A stretch of DNA of 48,620 nucleotides from Bacillales bacterium (GTDB taxonomy: Bacteria > Bacillota_I > Bacilli_A > RFN20 > CAG-826). A program made the position numbers and the translations under genes. How positions within the stretch are numbered: the stretch's first letter is position 1; each line of letters begins with the position of its first letter. Below, in pieces: positions 1,239 through 29,547 of this stretch. Below the pieces are notes generated by a model. That model was given only the letters and a program-made list of their open reading frames with translations. It had not been told where the DNA came from and did no database searches. The stretch covers positions 1 through 48,620 of the forward strand of contig JAEESX010000003.1 of NCBI GenBank assembly GCA_016290145.1. The letters are read 5' to 3'.

Positions 1239-1922
1239 TTAGAATTTAACGTTTTCAAGAACCATAACTACTGGAATCATAATTGTCGCAATAGCCATAG
1301 CGGTAATTGGTGAATAAATAACTTTCTTCACGCCTTCCATGTTCCAGGAGAACTTTTCGGATAATTTGATTAATCCAAAGATTGCTGCACCAATTGCGAA
1401 TGTATAAAGAATAGCAACGCAGTTATAAGTGAAAACATATTTTGTAATATCATCAACCACTTTTTGTTGTGTGAGCTCTGGTGTATTAGATAAGCGGTAG
1501 AAAGTTGTTAATAATAAGTAAGATGTACTAGCAAGAATGAAGATGCCTAAACCTGCAAAGGAAATGACTTTCTTTGGACGGATGGCCAATAACGCCAAGC
1601 TCATAGTAGCGGCTTCAACTAACATATATAGCGCTGGTTCTAATTTGCTTCTAAAGATAAGCGCGCTAATTAATTTGATACCACTAGCAAGAATTCCCAT
1701 ATAGATAACACTTCTCGCGGCACCAGTCTTCTTATAACAACCACCCATTAAAAAATAAGCAATTGGCAATAAGACGGTTGTAGAAGAGAAGAAGAGTTTT
1801 CTTGTTCCGTGTACCCACTCCATGTGAAGAACATTGCCTATAGAGGCTTCAACTAATCCCCAAAGACCGCCAAAAAGCAAGACAGCAAATAAGATGACTA
1901 AATGTTTGTTTTGTACTTTCAT
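1239..1922 (-). CDS. Multi-pass membrane protein (possible ECF S-component-like transporter)
   Basis: About 6-7 hydrophobic segments, FGGLWGLVEASIGNVLH motif; start moved to ATG 1922 because a GAGAGG RBS lies just upstream. Confidence 0.65.
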   Translation of the reverse strand: MKVQNKHLVILFAVLLFGGLWGLVEASIGNVLHMEWVHGTRKLFFSSTTVLLPIAYFLMGGCYKKTGAARSVIYMGILASGIKLISALIFRSKLEPALYMLVEAATMSLALLAIRPKKVISFAGLGIFILASTSYLLLTTFYRLSNTPELTQQKVVDDITKYVFTYNCVAILYTFAIGAAIFGLIKLSEKFSWNMEGVKKVIYSPITAMAIATIMIPVVMVLENVKF

Positions 1923-10737: not shown

Positions 10738-12027
10738 ATGACATTACTAAAGGGGAAAAAGATAATTGCTATTGGCGCTGCTATGCTTCCAGTAATGGTA
10801 GTAGGTACGCTTTTCTTTACAGCTAATAATCCAATTAGAGCAAGTAAGGCTTCCGCTTTTACTATGTCATTAAATGCCAATAATGCTCCAACACTTTCTA
10901 ATGGTGAAGGAACAATGACTGATGAAAAGAATGTTACTTGGGAATACCACAATGCCAGTGATTTAAATAATGGACACGTGAGTATTGGCCACCAAGGTTA
11001 TTTTGGTATTAGTTCTGCTTCCGATTGGGGCTACACCGCTATCAGTGAATTAACAGTTAACTTCACAGCAGGTACAGATGCTGAATTATGGTTATTAACT
11101 TCAGTGGATGGCAGCGAATGGCACGAAGGAATAATTCTTGAATCCGGTGTTGCTACAAACTGGGCAAATAATTGGAGATACGTCCGTTTCTATTGTTGGG
11201 ATGATAACAATGGCACTATCGATGTTACTTCCGTTAACTTCGGTTATGAATGCCAAGGAATCAGCAGTACAGATGATATCGACTGCGCATTCGCAGACAA
11301 TATTGGAAAGACCAACAATCTAACAGTGGCAAAAGAAACATCTATTATTTCTCCTCGTGGAGACAGCCAAGAAGCTGTTTATCTAACAAGAACTGGTAAT
11401 AGTAGTTATTGTGAATTCTTGCTTAAACAAAAACACATGATTCACGATCTCCACACCTACACAATTGAATTTGATTACTACCACAAGAATAATCAAAACA
11501 AACCAACAGTCCAATTCTTCAACGCTACTGGATCAGTTGGTGGCGCAGGTACTTATGGTGCCCCTTCTAAAACAAATTACAAATTCAGTGATATCGATAG
11601 TGATTGGTGGCATATTGAAGTTCAAATTTCTTCTATGGTTGCCACACATGTTGGTCACTCAGATACTGTTACTGCTAATAAAGAAGTCGACAGAATTAGA
11701 CTTACAACAAGTAACTGTGCTATCGACAATTTGAAAATTGGTGGCATTCCATCAAATAGCAACCATCCATTAGGTATTTATAACAACGGTACATCATTCA
11801 GTAACGGCGGTTACTATTGGATGAAAGTTTCATGGGCGGGCGTGTTACATAGTTGTACATTCTCATTCGATGTTCCAGGTATTGCGGAACAAGAAAATGA
11901 TCCAACTAGTGTCATTCCATTCTATTTACACGGATTAAGTTCAGGTACAGTTGTCGTTACCGCTACTGTGGTGTCCGGATACAATAGAAGTGTCGCAACA
12001 ATCTCAAATACAATTACAGTTAATTAA
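10738..12027 (+). CDS. Secreted beta-rich protein, paralog B
   Basis: Signal peptide ending ASKASA; shared blocks LNANNAP-L-NGEG-MTD, EFDYY, WWH-E, IDNL, KVSWAGVLHSCT. Confidence 0.85.
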   Translation: MTLLKGKKIIAIGAAMLPVMVVGTLFFTANNPIRASKASAFTMSLNANNAPTLSNGEGTMTDEKNVTWEYHNASDLNNGHVSIGHQGYFGISSASDWGYTAISELTVNFTAGTDAELWLLTSVDGSEWHEGIILESGVATNWANNWRYVRFYCWDDNNGTIDVTSVNFGYECQGISSTDDIDCAFADNIGKTNNLTVAKETSIISPRGDSQEAVYLTRTGNSSYCEFLLKQKHMIHDLHTYTIEFDYYHKNNQNKPTVQFFNATGSVGGAGTYGAPSKTNYKFSDIDSDWWHIEVQISSMVATHVGHSDTVTANKEVDRIRLTTSNCAIDNLKIGGIPSNSNHPLGIYNNGTSFSNGGYYWMKVSWAGVLHSCTFSFDVPGIAEQENDPTSVIPFYLHGLSSGTVVVTATVVSGYNRSVATISNTITVN

Positions 12028-14755: not shown

Positions 14756-15922
14756 TTACTCAGGCGCTTTTTCTTTTAGAAATTGTTGTAAGAATGAATA
14801 ATGTTTTGAGAACGTTTCATTGAAGTACATCTTATTGATATACATCTTTTCATATTCTGCGTTTTCAAATTTAATCATGTATCTTGAAACATCAGAAGAT
14901 GATTTCTCTTTTTTCTTTTCCGTATCCTTAGGATGAATAAACGATGATTGTGCTTCTAATCTAAATCCTGGTTTTGGTTTCTTAGATGTATATAGCATTG
15001 CTTCTACGAAATCAATTTCAGAGATGCTACTTAGAGGAATAAATAACTTTCTGAATTTGTCTAGAGAGGCTTGTTTAAGAAGTTCTAAATATTGTTCGTT
15101 ATTTCCTAACTCCGCTTTCGAGACAAAGAGGAGTTTTTCTTCTACTGACAATTCACTTATCGCAGTCTTTAAATCTTGTGCGTTTTCTTTGAATCGACAT
15201 AAGGCAATTCTTTGATTTGGCTTATCATAGACCATCGCCATTTGGCTAACTGGATATTCGTTTAATAACTTATCGTGGCCACATACTAGAACGAGTTTTC
15301 TTTTGAAAATATCAAGACTACAACCATAGACACTAACGAATTGTTTCATGAAATAGCTTTCATTAATTTGTTCGTACATCTTTTTATCTTCAATATAGTC
15401 TTCACTTTCTCTCGCTTTATTTAATGCTTCGATAATGTATTCATTGATAGCCTTTAATTCTCTTTCGTAAAGAACCTTATCGTTTTTTTCAAATCTAAAC
15501 ATGATGAAGATTTTACGAGTGGCGGATGTTTTCCACTCAGTGTCATTAATGCCGGTGAACGATTGCTCCACTAGTGCATAGGAAAGTAACGAGATGCATA
15601 ACGCTGGAGCGTCACCTTTATACATTCCATCAAATATTTCAAATACACATTGGTCTAAATCAAATAAACTGATGCGTTCGTAAGATATAAATGAACCATT
15701 ATCTTTGCTGACAATAATGCAGTCTTCATAAATGGTAATAGTTTGACTGCTATAAGCTTCGTTTAATTCTCGATAACCAGAGAAGGTGAATTCAAAGATT
15801 TTCTTTTTTGGAGAGCCTTTTTTCACATAAGTACCTTGGTCTTTTCTTTTCGTAATTAAAATTACGATTAAAACAATAACCGTTATTCCAAAGATAGCTA
15901 AACCAATTATGAGTCCGATCAT
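14756..15922 (-). CDS. Hypothetical protein with N-terminal membrane anchor
   Basis: 388-aa ORF, AAGGGG RBS, single N-terminal TM followed by basic residues; no recognisable family. Confidence 0.75.
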   Translation of the reverse strand: MIGLIIGLAIFGITVIVLIVILITKRKDQGTYVKKGSPKKKIFEFTFSGYRELNEAYSSQTITIYEDCIIVSKDNGSFISYERISLFDLDQCVFEIFDGMYKGDAPALCISLLSYALVEQSFTGINDTEWKTSATRKIFIMFRFEKNDKVLYERELKAINEYIIEALNKARESEDYIEDKKMYEQINESYFMKQFVSVYGCSLDIFKRKLVLVCGHDKLLNEYPVSQMAMVYDKPNQRIALCRFKENAQDLKTAISELSVEEKLLFVSKAELGNNEQYLELLKQASLDKFRKLFIPLSSISEIDFVEAMLYTSKKPKPGFRLEAQSSFIHPKDTEKKKEKSSSDVSRYMIKFENAEYEKMYINKMYFNETFSKHYSFLQQFLKEKAPE

Positions 15923-15983
15923 ACTTCCCCTTAAAGATGATTTATTAATCTTGTAATCAATATAACTTAAAAATATAAATAGT

Positions 15984-16012
15984 AAAAGAAAAGCGATCGC
16001 TCACACGATCGC
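15984..16012 (-). terminator. Intrinsic terminator closing the candidate large ncRNA
   Basis: Minus strand GCGAUCG-ugugag-CGAUCGC-UUUUCUUUU. Confidence 0.85.
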
Positions 16013-16163
16013 GTTAACCGGTTGTTTTGTATCAGGGACGAGCCCTGACACATAACACAAGTTGAGTTCCTTCTGACTGGTGGTGCTTCTTGTTGACGAT
16101 ACGTTTTGAATTGATTAGCGTATCGGTGGCCAGTTTCCTCTAGTTATTAGCTTCGAGGCCGTT

Positions 16164-16244
16164 TTCCTTTTCGTCGTGTCCGGTACTGGATTTATCCCGT
16201 CAAACTCTAACGCGGGAACCAGTGATGCAAGCATCAGGGAGGAA
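16164..16244 (-). repeat. ncRNA core copy 3 (most diverged)
   Basis: UUCCUCCC-UGAUGcuugCAUCA-CUGGU-UCCCGC-GUUAGAGUUUGAC-GGGA-UAAAUCCAGU-ACCGGACACGACGAAAAGGAA. Confidence 0.75.
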
Positions 16245-16480
16245 TGTACCGATCGTTACCTTAATTCAGATAACGCTTTGCTAGTGCAACCATTAGCTAC
16301 GTTTTTTTGATTTCGTAGAACTCCTACATCAATTTGGAGGAGCTGGTTGGCTTATCTAGTCTTGAACTCGTTAGTCCTTTTCTTCGTGAAGTTATCTCTT
16401 CGGAAGTTCTTCACTATCGCTACACGTTTGTTGAGTTATGTAACTTAGGCTTGTTCTGCTTTAATTAGAAGCAGTGTTCT

Positions 16481-16556
16481 TACCTCTTCGATCGTGTCAG
16501 GCGGTGGGATTACGCCGTTAAGTTCTAACTCGGCAACCACTACAAGTAGGGAGGTA
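16481..16556 (-). repeat. ncRNA core copy 2
   Basis: UACCUCCC-UACUUGUA-GUGGU-UGCCGA-GUUAGAACUUAAC-GGCG-UAAUCCCAC-CGCCUGACACGAUCGAAGAGGUA. Confidence 0.88.
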
Positions 16557-16780
16557 AACCTTTAACCAATCCTAGGATTGATTAGCCGCTTGCGATCATA
16601 AACCAGAAGATTTAATCCTGGAACCTTACTATCAACGTCGTGTAATGGTTGATCGTCGATTTCGCGGCTGAACTTCATTGCCCCTTTGCAAAGCATCGTT
16701 GATTGGCTTTGCTTATTTCACGTTGCATGTTAACTTAGCGTGAATGGCAGTGTTATAAGGTATTGGTCTTATAACTTTTG

Positions 16781-16853
16781 TCCTCTTCGACTATGTCGGG
16801 CGGTGGGATTACGCTGTTAAGTTCTAACTCAGCGACCACTGTAGCAGGGAGGA
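16781..16853 (-). repeat. ncRNA core copy 1
   Basis: UCCUCCC-UGCUACA-GUGGU-CGCUGA-GUUAGAACUUAAC-AGCG-UAAUCCCAC-CGCCCGACAUAGUCGAAGAGGA. Confidence 0.88.
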
Positions 16854-17035
16854 TCGACCTCGATTATCACCGAAGTGACAATCTTACTAGTGCAATCATT
16901 AATCTATTGCTTTTAAGCTCTAGAACCGTCGTGTTAACTTCGTTTCCTACGTCGATTGTCTTACCTAGATTTGGGTTAGTGAGTAGCTATTGCTACTCAT
17001 TCCCATCAATTTGGTTTCCCAAGTTGATTGGTAAT

Positions 17036-17064
17036 AGTATCTTCTTTTTTATAAATTAGGTCAA
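17036..17064 (-). promoter_or_regulatory. Sigma70-type promoter for the candidate ncRNA
   Basis: TTGACC (17064-17059), 17 nt spacer, GATACT (17041-17036), with an AT-rich upstream region. Confidence 0.7.
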
Positions 17065-17228
17065 GCACTTTTTTAAAAATTTTTTTCAAGAAGTTAAAAA
17101 CCCTCGATGAAATCTCATGTTTTTTTATAAAAAATTTTCTAAAAATATTTTGTTATTAAAATTATTTCTTTGTTTTATTAATTATTTTTTAAATTGTTTA
17201 GTGCATACACGTATATATGTAGGCAAAA

Positions 17229-17255
17229 TAAAAACCGTCACGAGGACGGTCTTTA
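17229..17255 (-). terminator. Intrinsic terminator of the upstream small membrane gene
   Basis: Minus strand ACCGUC-cucgu-GACGGU-UUUUAUUUU. Confidence 0.75.
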
Positions 17256-17271
17256 GTTTAGAACAAACTGA

Positions 17272-17565
17272 TTATTCAGCTTTTTCTTCTTTAGCTTCTG
17301 CGACTGGTTGTTCTTTTTCTTTTTTGCCGAATGCCAATGGGACTGGAGCGCCTTTAATTGCGGCAACAAGATCGAGAACCCAAACAACGATAGAAACAAG
17401 TGGGACCACATTAAGAATTAAATAGATTAAGTGATCCTTGTTTTGGGCTTTTTCTTCGATTACGTTGAATAAACGGTAAAGGAAATAAATGATAGCCACA
17501 AAAATTGCGAAAACAATTCTTAAGCCTTTTCCAAGTCCGTCAACCCACTTCTTATAACCTTCCAT
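17272..17565 (-). CDS. Small 2-TM membrane protein
   Basis: AAAGGA RBS, two hydrophobic segments, charged tail. Confidence 0.75.
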   Translation of the reverse strand: MEGYKKWVDGLGKGLRIVFAIFVAIIYFLYRLFNVIEEKAQNKDHLIYLILNVVPLVSIVVWVLDLVAAIKGAPVPLAFGKKEKEQPVAEAKEEKAE

Positions 17566-17745
17566 GTTTGATTTCCTTTCTTAAGTTATATTTATTATAT
17601 AACTACATGAGTATAAACAAGAAGTATTTTATGTAAACATAGTTTAATATTTTCAAAAATATGTTCCGACATTTTTGCACGATGTAATCAAATTTTTTAG
17701 ATTTTTAAATATGTTTAATTACGGTAAAGAAATATAATAATTTTG

Positions 17746-19024: not shown

Positions 19025-21142
19025 TTATACGTATTCAATCTTAACAGTAACTTGTGTACTGCTCATCGCGGTGAATGTAATTTTGTATGGGAATGTTTCA
19101 CCATTATTCATTGTGGTTGGAAGTGTGTTGTCCTTAGTAAGGAATTGTCTATAGTTATTGAATGTAAAGACATCACCTTGATGGAATAAATCATCGCTGT
19201 TCAAGAAATGTCTTGCACCACTTGATGTGCTACCAAATGTATCGGTTCCACCTCTTTGGATGATTGCGAGTTCTTTATAATTCGCCCAATCATCAAATGC
19301 CGAAGGTCTATCTTCATAATCTAATGCATCGTTATCTGTTGGCCTATAAATATACATGCTGCTTGTGACGTGTGAATTGTATTCAACAAGACTACTACCA
19401 GTCCAACGATACATTTGGTCATTAACGTGATACATACGCACACCATAATCGCCTAAATCATAGTGATTGCTGTAATACTCCCAAGCACTGCCTTGATAGA
19501 CACCGTTAACTGGATAATTAACTGCGTTGTTTCCGTATGGAGCGAATAATTCAATCATGAAATATTCATCAAACGCACTATTGTTGAATGTATCTGGATT
19601 TGCAGGAATGACTAAGCAGTCACCGTTGATTGATGCAGCTTGAATTGTGATTTCTGTTGGACCAGTAATAACATATGGAGAGATCCATCCAACAGAGAAT
19701 TTGGAGAATGAGTTCCAGTCAAAGATGTTAAAGGATTGCATGTCAGCAAAACCAATATAATCAATATCTGAACCAGAATAGTCATAATAGTCGTCTAAAC
19801 CAAAGATATGGCCTTGTTCGTGAATTGCTGTAACACAATCTTGAACATGATCGAGTGCGCTGATGGAATAGACATTTGCAACAGGTGATTCAGGTGTACC
19901 AGCAGTATTACCAGTTTGGTATTTATGTGGCCACAAAGGTTTACTCCAAGGATCTTGTCCAGTAGCATTTTTATAGGTATTAGTATTGAAATTTGTAATT
20001 AAATGAATGTTATCAATAACACCATCATCATTTAAATCATAATCATCTAAACTCATATTACTTTTAATATAGTTAACAGCATTTTTAATTAAATTGAAAA
20101 GTTTGCTATAAGTATCATCGGATTGAATTAAGTCACTGGTCAAACTAGTACTTGTTTCAACATATGGAGCTGTAACTGTACCTGAAATATTCATTTGTCC
20201 AAATGATGCTGTTTCGTAATACATCTTTAAGGACATCTTGTTAGGATTAGTTCCAAAGTAGTAACCATCAATTTCCGATAACCTGCTACTTGTCCAAGTA
20301 TCTATATAATTACCACTTAGCGTGATAGGAATAACAAGCATTTTAACATTACCTTTAGATGGAGAAATATCTGAATCTAAATCCGTTTGAACATTAACGA
20401 TGTCGCTAGAATTTAAACGATAGTAATTACCACCAACAGTGAATGGTGTTGAGAGTAAATATGTTTTATAGGAAAGAACCAAACTGTAATTAGTATTCAT
20501 TTCTAACGCTGTTTCAAGATAGTCATTAACAGTGTCGCCTTCTTTTCTAACTTTGAAGGTCATACCAGTTGTATCGGTATTGATGTTGTAAGTGTATTGT
20601 TCAATACCTTGTTCACGCCAATGAATTTTTAATGGTAAGTTTGTGAGTTTGTTTTTAACAATATCACCTTCATTGAATGTTGGTGTATTAACGTATTCAA
20701 CTGATTGAAGAACAAAGCCTTCTGTATCAAAACCAGAAGCAACATCAAAGTTGATAAATGTTGATAATGTTTTGTTGTCTACTTTGACTTTGAAATCAAC
20801 ACGATATTCACCAACATATTCAAATTGTGTGGAGGTGGTAATTTGTTGATTTAGTGGATTATAGATTCTATTGATTGTTGCGCTAGAGGCTGGAACAGTT
20901 TTGGTGCTGTTATCATCATAGTGAGCGGTCACAATAATGCCACTTGTGCTATAAGTACTACCAATTGTGTATGTCTTATTATCTTCAATGCTAACTGATT
21001 GCACTTTTGCTACCGGAGTTTGGTTATTGTTGTTATTATTGTTGTTATTTTCTCCACCATTCATGAAGCTTGCTAAGAAGTCACAAGCTGTTAATGAGAA
21101 TGCGCTGCAGAATACAAGGATTTTAGCCAATACTTTTTTCAT
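19025..21142 (-). CDS. M6-like (immune inhibitor A family) zinc metalloprotease lipoprotein with N-terminal Ig-like domain
   Basis: Lipobox LTAC, poly-Asn linker, YYETASFG, DYDLNDDGVID, HEQGHIFGLDDYY, EYFMIE. Confidence 0.85.
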   Translation of the reverse strand: MKKVLAKILVFCSAFSLTACDFLASFMNGGENNNNNNNNNQTPVAKVQSVSIEDNKTYTIGSTYSTSGIIVTAHYDDNSTKTVPASSATINRIYNPLNQQITTSTQFEYVGEYRVDFKVKVDNKTLSTFINFDVASGFDTEGFVLQSVEYVNTPTFNEGDIVKNKLTNLPLKIHWREQGIEQYTYNINTDTTGMTFKVRKEGDTVNDYLETALEMNTNYSLVLSYKTYLLSTPFTVGGNYYRLNSSDIVNVQTDLDSDISPSKGNVKMLVIPITLSGNYIDTWTSSRLSEIDGYYFGTNPNKMSLKMYYETASFGQMNISGTVTAPYVETSTSLTSDLIQSDDTYSKLFNLIKNAVNYIKSNMSLDDYDLNDDGVIDNIHLITNFNTNTYKNATGQDPWSKPLWPHKYQTGNTAGTPESPVANVYSISALDHVQDCVTAIHEQGHIFGLDDYYDYSGSDIDYIGFADMQSFNIFDWNSFSKFSVGWISPYVITGPTEITIQAASINGDCLVIPANPDTFNNSAFDEYFMIELFAPYGNNAVNYPVNGVYQGSAWEYYSNHYDLGDYGVRMYHVNDQMYRWTGSSLVEYNSHVTSSMYIYRPTDNDALDYEDRPSAFDDWANYKELAIIQRGGTDTFGSTSSGARHFLNSDDLFHQGDVFTFNNYRQFLTKDNTLPTTMNNGETFPYKITFTAMSSTQVTVKIEYV

Positions 21143-21384
21143 AGGTTTTCGCCTCTTTTTCATTTATAAAGCAAGTTTTTAAGTTTTGCTTCTAACTTTA
21201 TAGAAACATATTAACATATAAAGTCACCAACCAAGGTGACTTAATTATACTAATGCAGAGAAACGGTTTTTATTGAGCTCACGAAGAAACTAATTATAAT
21301 ATCAATAAGGGGGATTTTTTATTTCTCTATATAAGAGAAAGGAAAATAGCGTCTAATAAACTTAGATGTAAAAGAAAAAGGGGT

Positions 21385-22680
21385 ATGACAAAATTACAAA
21401 AAATTATTGGAGGAACATTAGTATCACTATCTGTTAGTGCTATTGTCATCCAATTTGCCGTTAGTACCAATTCCAAAAACGCAAAAGCCGATGAAGTGGC
21501 TTATTTAGACGCGTCCAATTCTCCCGAACTCACAAATGGTGAAGGTACAATGACTGACTCAAAAGGAGTCACTTGGGAATATTACAACGCGGAGGATTAT
21601 GCTTCCGGCCACATCACTATTGGTCATGAAGGCTATTTCGGTATTTCTTCTAACTCAGCTTGGGGTTTATCTGGCATTCAAAGTTTAAGAGTGGATTATA
21701 CCGCTGATGCACAATCTGAATTATGGCTCTTAACATCTATTGATGGTGTTGATTGGGGCGAACAATTAATCTTACAAGATAATATTTCCACTACTTTAGC
21801 TAAAAACTGGAAGTACATAAGATTCTATAATTATTCATCTAGCAATAGTTCAATCGATATTGATTGTCTTTATATTGATAGTGTTTGTGCGGAAACAGTT
21901 GCCTCTGAAGATGTTGATTCAGCACATTCCACTCAAATTGCTACACATTCAGCCAATTTAACGGTTTATAGTGAAACGAGCGATGTTTCTCCTCTTGGTG
22001 GTAGCGTAGAAGCAGTGAGATTTGAAAAATCCGGTAAAGAAAGTTCTAATGTTACCTTCTCATTTTGGAGAACATATACCGCTCTTGAAGTTGCCAATCA
22101 AAAACTAGAATATGATTTAAAAGTCGGAACTAATTATGGAAAGACAGTCGAGTTATTGAGCAACAATAAAACTGTTGGATTAGTAATTAATTCTAATGAT
22201 GCAACTAGTTTTATAAGCACACCATTAGGAGATAACTGGTATCACATTGAAATACCTATGAATGCATTCTTCACTTTCATTTCTGGATACGACAACGACA
22301 ATGTTCCTCCAAATAATCTTGCAACAACAGTAATTGATAGCGTGAAATTTAACGTTGGTACTTCAACTATTGATAACTTAAGAATTTCTGGTTCTCAATG
22401 TAGTATGGGCTTCTTTAATAGTCCTAGATACACACCAACAGTTGGTAGCGCTCTTTGGGTTAAAGCATCTTGGGTTGGAGTGTTACATAGTTGCACTCTA
22501 ACATGTAGTGATGAAACAGTTGCAAAACCTATTCCTACCACAGATGGACATTTAAGAAATGCTAGCCCGTTCTATATTAAATGTTTAAGTAGCGGGACTG
22601 TTACTGTTACCATAACATTAGTAGTTGGTTATAATAGACAACAACTTCCATCAATTACAAAGACATTTACTATTTCTTAA
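21385..22680 (+). CDS. Secreted beta-rich protein, paralog C
   Basis: Signal peptide ending AKA; same three-part architecture as 10738. Confidence 0.85.
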   Translation: MTKLQKIIGGTLVSLSVSAIVIQFAVSTNSKNAKADEVAYLDASNSPELTNGEGTMTDSKGVTWEYYNAEDYASGHITIGHEGYFGISSNSAWGLSGIQSLRVDYTADAQSELWLLTSIDGVDWGEQLILQDNISTTLAKNWKYIRFYNYSSSNSSIDIDCLYIDSVCAETVASEDVDSAHSTQIATHSANLTVYSETSDVSPLGGSVEAVRFEKSGKESSNVTFSFWRTYTALEVANQKLEYDLKVGTNYGKTVELLSNNKTVGLVINSNDATSFISTPLGDNWYHIEIPMNAFFTFISGYDNDNVPPNNLATTVIDSVKFNVGTSTIDNLRISGSQCSMGFFNSPRYTPTVGSALWVKASWVGVLHSCTLTCSDETVAKPIPTTDGHLRNASPFYIKCLSSGTVTVTITLVVGYNRQQLPSITKTFTIS

Positions 22681-22747: not shown

Positions 22748-23725
22748 TTAAGTTACTGAGAATGTATTGCTAATGGTAAATACTGTATGGTTTCTTCCAA
22801 TAACAAGAGTGGCAGTTAATACAACTGAACCTGCCTTAAGAAGTTTGAAATAGAATGGGCTTCCATTAGGGAATGGGGCGGTTGTAGATGTAGTATCATC
22901 CGCTGAAAACTCTGGAACTGCAACTTCAGTGTCACTGGATGTAAGTATACAAGAATGCAATTCACCAGAGAATGCTACCTTAAACCAGAAGAATTTTCCT
23001 GCAGAATCACTTGTCCATCTATTAAATATGCCCAACCTTGCAGCAGGCTCTATATTGAAATGTAAATTATCTATAATTGCGAAAGCGGTTATAGAGTTGT
23101 AGTTAAACATGTATTTGTCATTGATTTTAATACCATTAACTTTTTTATCTAATGCGATAGGACTATCTTGGTGACTTGCCAACGTTGGCATACTAGCGAA
23201 AACAAAGTATTCTAAGTGCCACCAATCCTCGTCGATATTAGTAACGACAAATGAAGATTTGTCATTTACTGTATCTGAACCACCTTGTTCAGTACCTTGA
23301 CCAGAATTATTATTCATAAATGTAACACTTGGAAAACCCTTGTTATTTTGTTCTCTTTTGTATTTGTGATAGTAATCAAATTCAATTTTAAAGAACCGAA
23401 TTTCGCTTAGATAATAATCCCTATCAAAATTAATATGAATAATATGGTTTCCACTTGATGATCCAGTAGTGCTTGTCATTCTAATGGCTTCGTAACTGTC
23501 TTGAGTTATGGTGGTTTCTTTAGTCAAAGTCAAATTACTACTGCTGCGGACATAGCTGGTTTTAGCAAAGTCAGTATCTTCAAGGAATTTCCATGTTGGG
23601 AAGTTGGCTTGGATGGAATTATCCGTATTTTGAGCATTAGTCATAGCCCAAGCGGAATGACCCACACCAAACAAACTAGCGGAAGCGATAATTCCAGCTA
23701 AGAAAAGTAAAATTTTATTCTTCAT
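22748..23725 (-). CDS. Secreted protein with SipW-type signal peptide, paralog D (lacks the family N-terminal domain)
   Basis: Signal ...LFGVGHSAW; EFDYY, WWHLE, IIDNL, FKVAFSGELHSC, SPFY, GSVVLTATLVIG shared with A-C. Confidence 0.85.
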   Translation of the reverse strand: MKNKILLFLAGIIASASLFGVGHSAWAMTNAQNTDNSIQANFPTWKFLEDTDFAKTSYVRSSSNLTLTKETTITQDSYEAIRMTSTTGSSSGNHIIHINFDRDYYLSEIRFFKIEFDYYHKYKREQNNKGFPSVTFMNNNSGQGTEQGGSDTVNDKSSFVVTNIDEDWWHLEYFVFASMPTLASHQDSPIALDKKVNGIKINDKYMFNYNSITAFAIIDNLHFNIEPAARLGIFNRWTSDSAGKFFWFKVAFSGELHSCILTSSDTEVAVPEFSADDTTSTTAPFPNGSPFYFKLLKAGSVVLTATLVIGRNHTVFTISNTFSVT

Positions 23726-25142: not shown

Positions 25143-25232
25143 CCATCATTGAAGCAGCTGGCTGTCCATTATCTTCGGACCCTATAGTTTTGCGACCCCA
25201 AATCTCTTTAGGTGTGCCTTTGTATACGATGA
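25143..25232 (-). promoter_or_regulatory. c-di-GMP-I (GEMM) riboswitch
   Basis: Minus strand AAAGGCACAC-CUAAA-GAGA-UUUGG-GGUCGCAAAACUAUAGGGUCC...GGACAGCCAGCUGC matches the GGCAAAC..GNRA..CGCAAA..CAGCCAGUUGC consensus; lies in the 5' UTR. Confidence 0.88.
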
Positions 25233-29471: not shown

Positions 29472-29547
29472 TGGTGGATCTAATCGGGATCGAACCGACG
29501 ACCTCATCGTTGCGAACGATGCGCTCTCCCAACTGAGCTACAGACCC
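29472..29547 (-). tRNA. tRNA-Ala (CGC)
   Basis: GGGTCTGTAGCTCAGTTGGGAGAGCG-CATCG-TTCGCAA-CGATG-AGGTCGTCGGTTCGATCCCGATTAGATCCACCA; G3:U70 identity pair and encoded CCA. Confidence 0.96.

Follow-up and report, generated by a model that had tools for sequence, protein, structure and literature searches.

Bacterial RNAs of great size and complexity are rare, and earlier examples (the ribosome, RNase P, the group I and II introns and, more recently, OLE, ROOL and GOLLD) had unusual biochemistry. ROOL, GOLLD and OLE are among the systems most like the RNA described here, being likewise stand-alone long RNA genes with many stems, pseudoknots and kissing loops and of unknown function; ROOL and GOLLD are often found in phages and plasmids. 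ROOL was also found in the cow rumen (PMC5737381), and the same paper (Weinberg et al., 2017, Nucleic Acids Res) is the origin of the cow-rumen-1 motif, which Rfam (RF02946) describes as a 61-nucleotide (nt) hairpin with an unpaired 3' tail and types as "Gene; sRNA" (small RNA). Here we analyse a 48,620-nt stretch of DNA from a Bacillales bacterium (NCBI GenBank assembly GCA_016290145.1, contig JAEESX010000003.1, positions 1 to 48,620; hereafter "the window") and report that its minus strand, from ~17029 to ~15984, very probably carries a stand-alone non-coding RNA (ncRNA) gene of ~1,040 nt in which cow-rumen-1 occurs three times. A literature search in which the accession RF02946 was not used as a query found no published description of a 1-kb three-module RNA or of its pseudoknots; the rumen and tandem passages in the main text of Weinberg et al. 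(PMC5737381) are silent on cow-rumen-1, the supplement of that paper, which may mention a tandem arrangement, not being covered.

Results

Boundaries and composition of the gene

An earlier reading of the bare sequence (the original prediction) had proposed at this place a large, structured, stand-alone RNA with its own promoter and terminator. Scans of the minus strand recovered the promoter (TTGACC, a 17-nt spacer, GATACT), the 3' terminator hairpin with its T run and a second terminator upstream, all where it had put them (Table 1). The stretch 15700-17500 contains 7 terminator-like sites compared with 1.4 ± 1.2 in shuffled sequences. Since promoter-like sites are not enriched there (2 compared with 4.1 ± 2.1), the promoter call rests on conservation among homologues and not on the scan: 14 aligned homologous loci retain TTGAC at -35 and an ATACT-like box at -10. 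Transcription would start near 17029. The stem of the 3' terminator varies in sequence among the homologues while its complementarity is kept (by-eye reading), and similarity between homologues extends from the promoter to the terminator. The upstream terminator insulates the RNA gene against read-through. As had been claimed, the region is richer in G+C (0.42-0.44) than its flanks (0.25-0.37) and holds no credible open reading frame (ORF): under translation table 11, minus-strand ORFs reach at most 44 amino acids (aa), and the plus strand has one of 93 aa. Among 62 homologues the longest ORF has a median length of 69 aa and is constant in neither position nor strand, and indels in an alignment of 34 homologues do not come in threes; coding is excluded as far as sequence evidence reaches.

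Three copies of a known motif

Comparison with Rfam (release 15) did not support one part of the original prediction, namely that the RNA was undescribed and without any hallmark, for three cow-rumen-1 motifs sit inside it, each matching the full model above the gathering score of 53.4 bits. The result that it had named as refuting, a strong full-length Rfam match, did not occur: the three motifs, 299 and 318 nt apart, cover 182 of ~1,044 nt (~17%). A 59-nt direct repeat occurs in three copies at the same 318- and 299-nt spacing, and three units of ~300 nt align at about 60% column identity. Tandem Repeats Finder detected no array in the RNA because this divergence is too great for it, and the repeat of whole modules is visible only through the 59-nt core and Rfam. 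The region is thus an old internal triplication, and neither the triplication nor the three paralogous modules had been part of the original prediction. At gathering thresholds the whole window yielded, besides cow-rumen-1, only one transfer RNA (tRNA) gene (29475-29547, minus strand, RF00005, 62 bits) and one c-di-GMP-I riboswitch aptamer (25150-25228, minus strand, RF01051, 47.3 bits, cut-off 35). At E <= 1, 15700-17400 gave no other family except traJ_5, at a chance-level 23.7 bits against a cut-off of 50; neither ROOL, GOLLD, OLE or HEARO nor any known self-cleaving ribozyme family was matched.

Covariation and structure

The structure was derived from an alignment (A2) of 34 distinct full-length sequences. 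RNAalifold predicted 150 pairs, of which 98 show one or more compensatory double changes. Curation, in which conflicting or invariant long-range pairs were dropped and pseudoknots found by eye and helices from a scan of all column pairs were added, led to 178 pairs in 35 helices. Standard pairs fill 97.2% of the cells of the curated structure, compared with 26.5-43.3% when the pairing is slid by 1-3 columns and 86.0% after shuffling; two-sided pair changes number 113 (slid: 26-35; shuffled: 63.9), and the covariation score is 0.385 (slid: 0.061-0.082; shuffled: 0.166). None of 500 shuffles reached the curated structure on any of the three measures, a control that overstates significance because the 34 sequences are related. 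The slid control is fairer and, together with the many independent pair types per helix, makes the stronger argument for the structure. Three of the hairpins that the original prediction named, GAGUAGC/GCUACUC, GUGAAG/CUUCAC and CGAUACG/CGUAUCG, correspond to helices 1, 22 and 35 and show two-sided changes in homologues, and the remaining ones recur in single-sequence folds. The two halves of the transcript have fold z-scores of -4.79 and -2.95, with 0 of 100 dinucleotide shuffles folding as well in either case.

Several candidates were discarded. A long-range stem closing module 3 (P0) showed only one-sided changes and many unpaired cells and clashes with the covarying helix 34, and the RNAalifold pairs of A2 columns 15-16/1227-1228, 299-302/979-982, 337-340/631-634 and 497-499/624-626 are invariant or compete with covarying partners within a module. 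In the MAFFT alignment of the cores (A3) both ends were out of register.

Anatomy of the modules

The RNA is predicted to comprise a short leader, three paralogous ~300-nt modules and a tail with the terminator (Table 1). From 5' to 3', a module consists of a 5' domain (stems Pa and Pb, a GUUGA- or AAUUGA-loop hairpin and a UAAA-loop hairpin), a variable hairpin, the cow-rumen-1 core, a UAAU-loop hairpin, the H hairpin, whose loop carries UCAAC or UCAAUU, and a linker; modules 1 and 2 add a variable hairpin after H. Module 3 is the most conserved of the three. The leader hairpin (helix 1) has two-sided changes in 6 of its 7 pairs with 100% of cells paired, the stem enclosing H1 in module 1 is supported also without the alignment, and the UCAGGG/CCCUGA hairpin of the tail is seen in single-sequence folds.

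Every module contains three long-range pairings: a kissing loop that joins the loop of a 5' hairpin to that of H, an H-type pseudoknot in the core and a pairing between the apical loop of the motif and a distant linker. The kissing loop of module 1 (helix 4) has two-sided changes in 3 of 7 pairs (GC30/AU3, AU20/CG9, UA18/CG11), and the GUUAAC found in both strands in this genome is itself a double change relative to the usual GUUGAY/RUCAAC. That of module 3 (helix 25) shows UA20/CG11 and AU31/GC3, and the partners from the other modules fit only 2 of 34 sequences. The kissing loop of module 2 (helix 12) is invariant with 100% of cells paired, which is compatible with the pairing and offers no variation to test it. 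In the pseudoknot, the motif's 3' tail pairs at two places with sequence upstream of it, its GCCS with SGGY (CGGY; P1b) and its GAGG with CCUC (P1a). Covariation of P1b is seen in modules 1 and 2 (core 1: GC22/AU5 and UG18/CG11/UA3, P1a being near-invariant), and P1a covaries in module 3 (core 3: UA20/AU14 and UA28/CG6 in helix 28, helix 27 being invariant). The loop-linker pairing joins the apical loop to a six-base segment that lies 150-200 nt further downstream and belongs either to the linker preceding the next module or to the tail. Across the three modules 98.5-99.0% of its cells are paired and 3-4 of 6 pairs are changed on both sides: 4 of 6 in module 1 (helix 9; 99.0% of cells), 3 of 6 in module 2 (helix 19; GC23/AU9, CG22/UA10), and in module 3 (helix 32) UA24/CG10 and AU28/GC4 are seen.

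When all 5' strands were matched against all 3' strands, the same-module partner was best for the kissing loop, the loop-linker and P1b in every module. The P1a partner is specific in module 3 and interchangeable between modules 1 and 2, because both share CCUC/GAGG. The scan of all column pairs revealed no covarying helix between distant modules, only long-range runs within modules; since same-module partners also fit best, the modules look like independent folding units. A loop base of module 1 (A2 columns 266, 274 and 492; window ~16829, 16821 and 16673) covaries both with a local partner, in the inner stem of the Rfam model (GC17/AU12), and with a distant one (CG19/UA14). The two pairings are mutually exclusive, and this double covariation may reflect an alternative pairing or a folding switch.

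Table 1. Predicted features of the RNA gene and its surroundings (window positions; pairing strands are given 5' strand / 3' strand)
Feature	Position	Strand	Details
Sigma-70-type promoter	17036..17064	-	-35 TTGACC 17064-17059, 17-nt spacer, -10 GATACT 17041-17036; motif scan and homologues
Whole predicted transcript, ~1,044 nt	15984..17029	-	5' leader, three modules, 3' tail, terminator; ends placed from promoter and terminator
5' leader, two hairpins	16972..17028	-	second hairpin GAGUAGC/GCUACUC 16998-16992 / 16987-16981
Module 1	16670..16971	-	Pa 16968-16965 / 16890-16887; Pb 16958-16953 / 16898-16893; extends to loop-linker 3' strand 16675-16670
Module 1 kissing loop	16728..16939	-	16939-16933 with 16734-16728; helix 4
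Core 1 H-type pseudoknot	16781..16860	-	P1b 16860-16857 / 16801-16798; P1a (CCUC/GAGG) 16853-16849 / 16785-16781; helices 5, 6
Cow-rumen-1 copy 1, core of module 1	16782..16842	-	79.6 bits, model positions 1-61 of 61
Module 1 loop-linker	16670..16824	-	motif apical loop 16824-16819 with 16675-16670; helix 9, from column-pair scan
Module 2	16364..16669	-	Pb 16654-16650 / 16598-16594; Pd 16621-16616 / 16608-16603; helices 11, 13
Module 2 kissing loop	16430..16636	-	GUUGA 16636-16632 with UCAAC 16434-16430; helix 12
Core 2 pseudoknot		-	P1b 16561-16558 / 16502-16499; P1a 16554-16551 / 16486-16483; helices 15, 16
Cow-rumen-1 copy 2, core of module 2	16483..16543	-	78.7 bits, model positions 1-61 of 61
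Module 2 loop-linker	16364..16525	-	16525-16520 with 16369-16364; helix 19
Module 2 hairpins		-	H2 16444-16438 / 16425-16419; variable 16413-16409 / 16392-16387; helices 21, 22
Module 3	16064..16363	-	Pa 16359-16356 / 16284-16281; Pb 16349-16344 / 16292-16287; P2 16275-16268 / 16261-16254; helices 23-35
Module 3 kissing loop	16109..16334	-	AAUUGA 16334-16329 with UCAAUU 16114-16109; helix 25
Core 3 pseudoknot		-	P1b 16252-16248 / 16184-16180; P1a 16244-16241 / 16167-16164; helices 27, 28
Cow-rumen-1 copy 3, core of module 3	16166..16225	-	74.6 bits, model positions 1-61 of 61
Module 3 loop-linker	16064..16207	-	16207-16202 with 16069-16064 in 3' tail; helix 32
Module 3 hairpins		-	inserted 16236-16232 / 16227-16223; UAAU-loop 16158-16151 / 16143-16137; H3 16124-16119 / 16103-16098
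Module 3 enclosing stem		-	16134-16130 / 16080-16076
3' tail	16013..16092	-	conserved stretch starting CAAGAAGCA (16092-16084), unpaired in model; hairpin UCAGGG/CCCUGA 16048-16043 / 16036-16031
Intrinsic terminator	15984..16012	-	stem-loop 16012-15993 (8 pairs, 5 G-C), then U tract TTTTCTTTT; scan
Terminator of upstream 97-aa ORF	17229..17255	-	11 pairs, then T run; scan
ORF without Pfam match	10738-12027	+	
ORF without Pfam match	14756-15922	-	
ORF without Pfam match	17272-17565	-	
ORF without Pfam match	19025-21163	-	
ORF without Pfam match	21385-22680	+	
ORF without Pfam match	22748-23725	-	

Comparison with the Rfam description

By score and full-model coverage each core is formally a member of the cow-rumen-1 family, and the rumen habitat is shared as well. 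The outer and second stems of the Rfam consensus are confirmed here (helices 7, 8, 17, 18, 30 and 31). In contrast, the 3' tail that is unpaired in Rfam pairs upstream (helices 5, 6, 15, 16, 27 and 28), and the partner of the apical loop is a distant linker (helices 9, 19 and 32), a pairing that would exclude the inner 3-bp apical stem of the Rfam model, although in module 1 the double covariation described above suggests that the two may alternate. Three motifs share one promoter-like site and one end terminator, at odds with a stand-alone small RNA of ~61 nt, and that description is also contradicted by the conservation over the full length and by RNA-library contigs that bridge modules. Thus the motif itself is known, and the 61-nt small RNA with an unpaired tail, as described, does not fit the object found here.

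Presence in RNA libraries

Part of the window is contained in 20 public runs, six of which are RNA libraries. All four RNA-library runs examined (4 studies) contained contigs, 293 to 1,123 per run and at least 90% alike, on 16024-17039. Pieces with zero differences were found in X15 (16165-16284, depth 371.5), X18 (16161-16315, depth 473.8) and X17 (16070-16154, depth 155.5; 16165-16295, depth 86.6), and in X15 and X18 pieces at 16633-16764 bridge the boundary between modules 1 and 2. Outside 16024-17039 depth falls to between 0 and ~5 (X17: depth 2 on 17435-17575); the flanks are less conserved, so this is no proof of ends or level. Public contigs consisting of the RNA alone include 17 of 1,000-1,049 nt and 6 of 1,577-1,693 nt, the 17 three-module contigs spanning model positions 18-44 to 981-1049. 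Such contigs could be transcript assemblies or, equally, assembly breaks where conservation ends, and they are no proof of ends.

Distribution and number of modules

The host assembly (850 kb, 40 contigs, 75% complete) holds a single array. RF02946 was detected in 16 of 151 related genomes (G000 included) and in one family only (f1: 15/90; seven other families: 0/60), and in an even sample of the order it was found in 2 of 40 f1 genomes and in none of 110 from other families. The hits are mostly grouped in threes, ~300-320 nt apart; counts per genome are 3 (nine genomes), 6 (two), 9 (one), 5 (two) and 1 (two). The RNA is conserved over its full length across at least 8 genera. Among contigs from one genome per species, a 19-nt motif of module 3 marks 68 stretches; nhmmer confirmed the RNA in 42, and the other 26, from other phyla, are chance matches. 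The 42 confirmed loci are recorded as uncultured Bacilli, Erysipelotrichaceae or Bacillales, and many of the isolate names refer to rumen, reticulum or omasum. The same 19-nt motif occurs in at least 119 metagenome stretches and one viral contig (L100); among the matches listed (119 metagenome, 1 viral), 86 of 120 loci carry the RNA by nhmmer, and the viral contig has the motif without an nhmmer match. The searches yielded at least 99 near-full-length copies, which reduce to at least 77 distinct sequences and at least 62 at under 97% identity.

In a midpoint-rooted tree of the cores, the module-3 cores of 22 of 22 RNAs form one clade (support 0.98), from which it follows that the triplication predates the divergence of these genera; modules 1 and 2 are not resolved as clades. 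In forms with five modules, exactly modules 1 and 2 are present a second time (model positions 5-704 followed by 68-1059); such forms were found in G063, G032, one further genome locus and the 6 contigs of 1,577-1,693 nt. BLAST searches of 201 genomes of the family also revealed one-module forms of ~200-350 nt with their own terminator (G023, G296, G308 and G072). Two one-module relatives, L017 and L018, have loop and tail words that differ from those above and are again complementary (by-eye reading), which gives independent support for the loop-linker pairing.

Some loci deserve separate mention. The one-module RNA at G023:C37:46665-47010 is 98% identical to that at G296:C31:1528-1873 (L222, L223), although the two genomes are filed under different genera; the G023 contig (2.7 Mb genome, 8% contamination) may come from another organism, or otherwise the RNA may have been transferred recently. 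About 130-200 nt upstream of the one-module RNAs in L018 (~1745-1795, minus strand) and L017 (~1790-1840, minus strand) lies a shared long hairpin (GUGAUUC...GAAUCA) followed by a T run, which had no Rfam match at E <= 0.01 and may represent a terminator or a small element of its own. Some genomes hold more than one diverged copy of the whole RNA (three arrays in G051, two each in G001 and G002); L104 and L123 have two full arrays head to tail, and the copies in G002 lie in opposite orientation near both ends of one 157-kb contig.

Genomic context and searches for a partner

No reverse transcriptase, nuclease or integrase adjoins the RNA, just as the original prediction had noted; genes nearby in the window encode a YhhN-family protein, an S41 peptidase and an acyltransferase, and 6 of the 9 ORFs around the RNA have no Pfam match at E <= 0.001. 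Immediately downstream, an ORF of 388 aa has a hydrophobic stretch at its start. Of 28 homologous loci, 18 have the next downstream ORF on the same strand and 10 have it convergent, and the family of this ORF varies by genus (membrane protein, acyltransferase, Mbeg1-like protein). In the antisense search of the host genome, two 14-nt stretches matched exactly only their own locus, other hits having 1-2 mismatches, an 11-nt stretch had 0 exact matches, and a 9-nt stretch had 10 including the locus, too short to be told from chance.

The RNA is not a housekeeping RNA in disguise, because RNase P RNA type B was found in 5 of 5 genomes that carry it and transfer-messenger RNA (tmRNA) scored above the cut-off in 4 of 5, the fifth, G000, being 75% complete. 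The 6S RNA model (RF00013) detected nothing in 60 of 60 f1 genomes, carriers or not, and is weak elsewhere in the order, so that it is uninformative on substitution; 6S RNA in f1 is either diverged beyond the model or lacking. Searches with blastn found no match in 50,697 phage or 72,556 plasmid records. Overall, the RNA appears to be an accessory chromosomal gene, neither a leader nor the RNA of a mobile element.

Discussion

Starting from what the data support directly, that is, the gene, its conservation, its base pairs, its modular anatomy and its presence in RNA libraries, we infer trans action, binding and a partner as follows. Each module would fold alone into a compact, triple-locked domain, in which the invariant joining strand GACAYGAYCGAA, the CCCUG after P1a and the UAA bulge would form one pocket; each pocket would bind one copy of the same partner, a protein or a small ligand, with the valency set by evolution at 1, 3 or 5 modules. 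The RNA would act in trans, because no neighbour family is shared across genera and the strand of the downstream ORF is mixed (18 versus 10 of 28). Taken as a whole, an ncRNA gene serving as a multivalent platform in trans is our best explanation, with a probability of roughly 0.5; that the product is an abundant, multivalent platform acting in trans is a tentative proposal, to which we give somewhat less than even odds.

Several points weigh against this explanation. Contigs from RNA libraries give neither strand nor ends nor level, DNA may be present in such libraries, and the summed contig depth combines signal from many relatives. The choice of the pseudoknots and of part of the curated structure was made on the very alignment that scored them. 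The modules share only ~60% column identity and constraint on module 3 is much stronger than on the other two, which may mean that the modules are not equivalent, and multivalency is deduced from anatomy alone. A single compact fold is possible as well, because tertiary contacts other than base pairs are invisible to covariation. The RNA is patchy even in its own family (15/90 and 2/40 sampled genomes). No neighbour family is shared beyond close relatives or across genera in 34 loci, which leaves no partner candidate there; the reverse complements of four conserved stretches gave no convincing antisense site in the host genome, and neither the neighbour nor the antisense search found a partner, ligand or target.

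One alternative is an RNA-only architecture of the ROOL, GOLLD or OLE kind, whose linked modules would pack into a pseudo-symmetric body, with one another or with those of other molecules, tandem fusion replacing homo-oligomerisation and shape being the function. The RNA is indeed large, stand-alone, abundant and rich in kissing loops and pseudoknots, and its conserved UAAA and UAAU hairpin loops and the A-rich linkers of the consensus are free for the kind of contact by which GOLLD, ROOL and OLE form homo-oligomers, namely kissing loops and A-minor contacts (Kretsch et al., 2025, PMC12286853). However, the lack of any covarying base-paired contact between modules, the better fit of same-module partners, the existence of 1-, 3- and 5-module forms, which are hard to square with one closed symmetric body, and the absence of Rfam matches to these families and of matches in phage and plasmid collections make this reading unlikely. 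It is more improbable still that the 1-kb transcript is a precursor that a host RNase or self-cleavage cuts into module-sized cow-rumen-1 sRNAs. Rfam does class the motif among sRNA genes, there are one-module forms that end in a terminator of their own, the core is compact, highly conserved and pseudoknotted like small ribozymes, and the size-fractionated RNA-library runs X18 and X19 contain the RNA; against this stand the contigs that bridge modules 1 and 2, the 17 public contigs of 1,000-1,049 nt that span all modules, the absence of a match to self-cleaving families at E <= 1, and the loop-linker pairing, which uses the linker right before the next module, so that cutting there would not be neutral.

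The position of the gene raises the question of a giant cis-acting leader, in which three sensor domains would control read-through of the terminator 16012-15993 into the ORF at 14756-15922. This gene shares the strand of the RNA and begins ~60 nt beyond the terminator, same-strand ORFs follow in 18 of 28 loci, and tandem aptamers are known, e.g., glycine riboswitches (cited in PMC5737381). Yet the downstream ORF is convergent in 10 of 28 loci, downstream families differ between genera and no evident anti-terminator competes with the terminator stem in the folds, all of which renders a leader very improbable. Hardly any weight is left for the view that there is no functional RNA at all but a decayed repeat, a pseudogene or an unrecognised coding region. 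Its direct repeats are real and a 93-aa plus-strand ORF exists, but the 113 two-sided changes with pairing kept, the indels not in threes, the ORFs unkept in 62 homologues, the full-length conservation across at least 8 genera and the RNA-library contigs speak otherwise, and this view is refuted as far as sequence analysis goes.

Beyond the multivalent platform in trans, we consider a bolder and rather doubtful possibility, less credible than the platform itself although ahead of the rivals above: that this is a new class of very large bacterial ncRNA, made by tandem triplication of a triple-pseudoknotted ~300-nt domain, in which nine long-range pairings would build 3 (or 1, or 5) pockets with an activity not yet seen in RNA. 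If true, that activity could be catalysis, high-copy capture of a metabolite or protein, or the making of an RNA body with covalent repeats in place of the homo-oligomers formed by ROOL and GOLLD. Whatever its role, a catalogued 61-nt "small RNA" motif has turned out to be the conserved heart of a far larger object, in which every strand supposed to be single is paired. Versions of it with 1, 3 and 5 modules are a natural experiment in RNA domain duplication. The RNA is limited to small-genome uncultured rumen Bacilli, with RNA-library contigs from four rumen studies, and may matter for a poorly known rumen community; at least 77 distinct sequences and a pair-by-pair model are at hand for structural and binding work.

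Compared with known systems, the likeness to the sponge RNAs CsrB and RsmZ is in outline only, as an abundant trans RNA with repeated units whose number varies by lineage. Their units are short GGA hairpins, whereas those here are ~300 nt with three long-range pairings each, and there is no sequence or Rfam relation. Typical aptamers are several-fold shorter than the modules here. Tandem riboswitch aptamers such as the glycine riboswitch likewise have repeated aptamer-like domains with highly conserved joining strands, but the present RNA has no constant downstream gene, 10 of 28 downstream ORFs being convergent. Unlike ROOL, GOLLD and OLE, it is built by internal triplication and lacks an Rfam match to them and any phage or plasmid match; at ~1,040 nt it also exceeds ROOL, which averages 581 nt (PMC5737381). 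What is new here is that the cow-rumen-1 motif forms the cores of paralogous ~300-nt modules, three of which make up one conserved RNA of ~1.04 kb.

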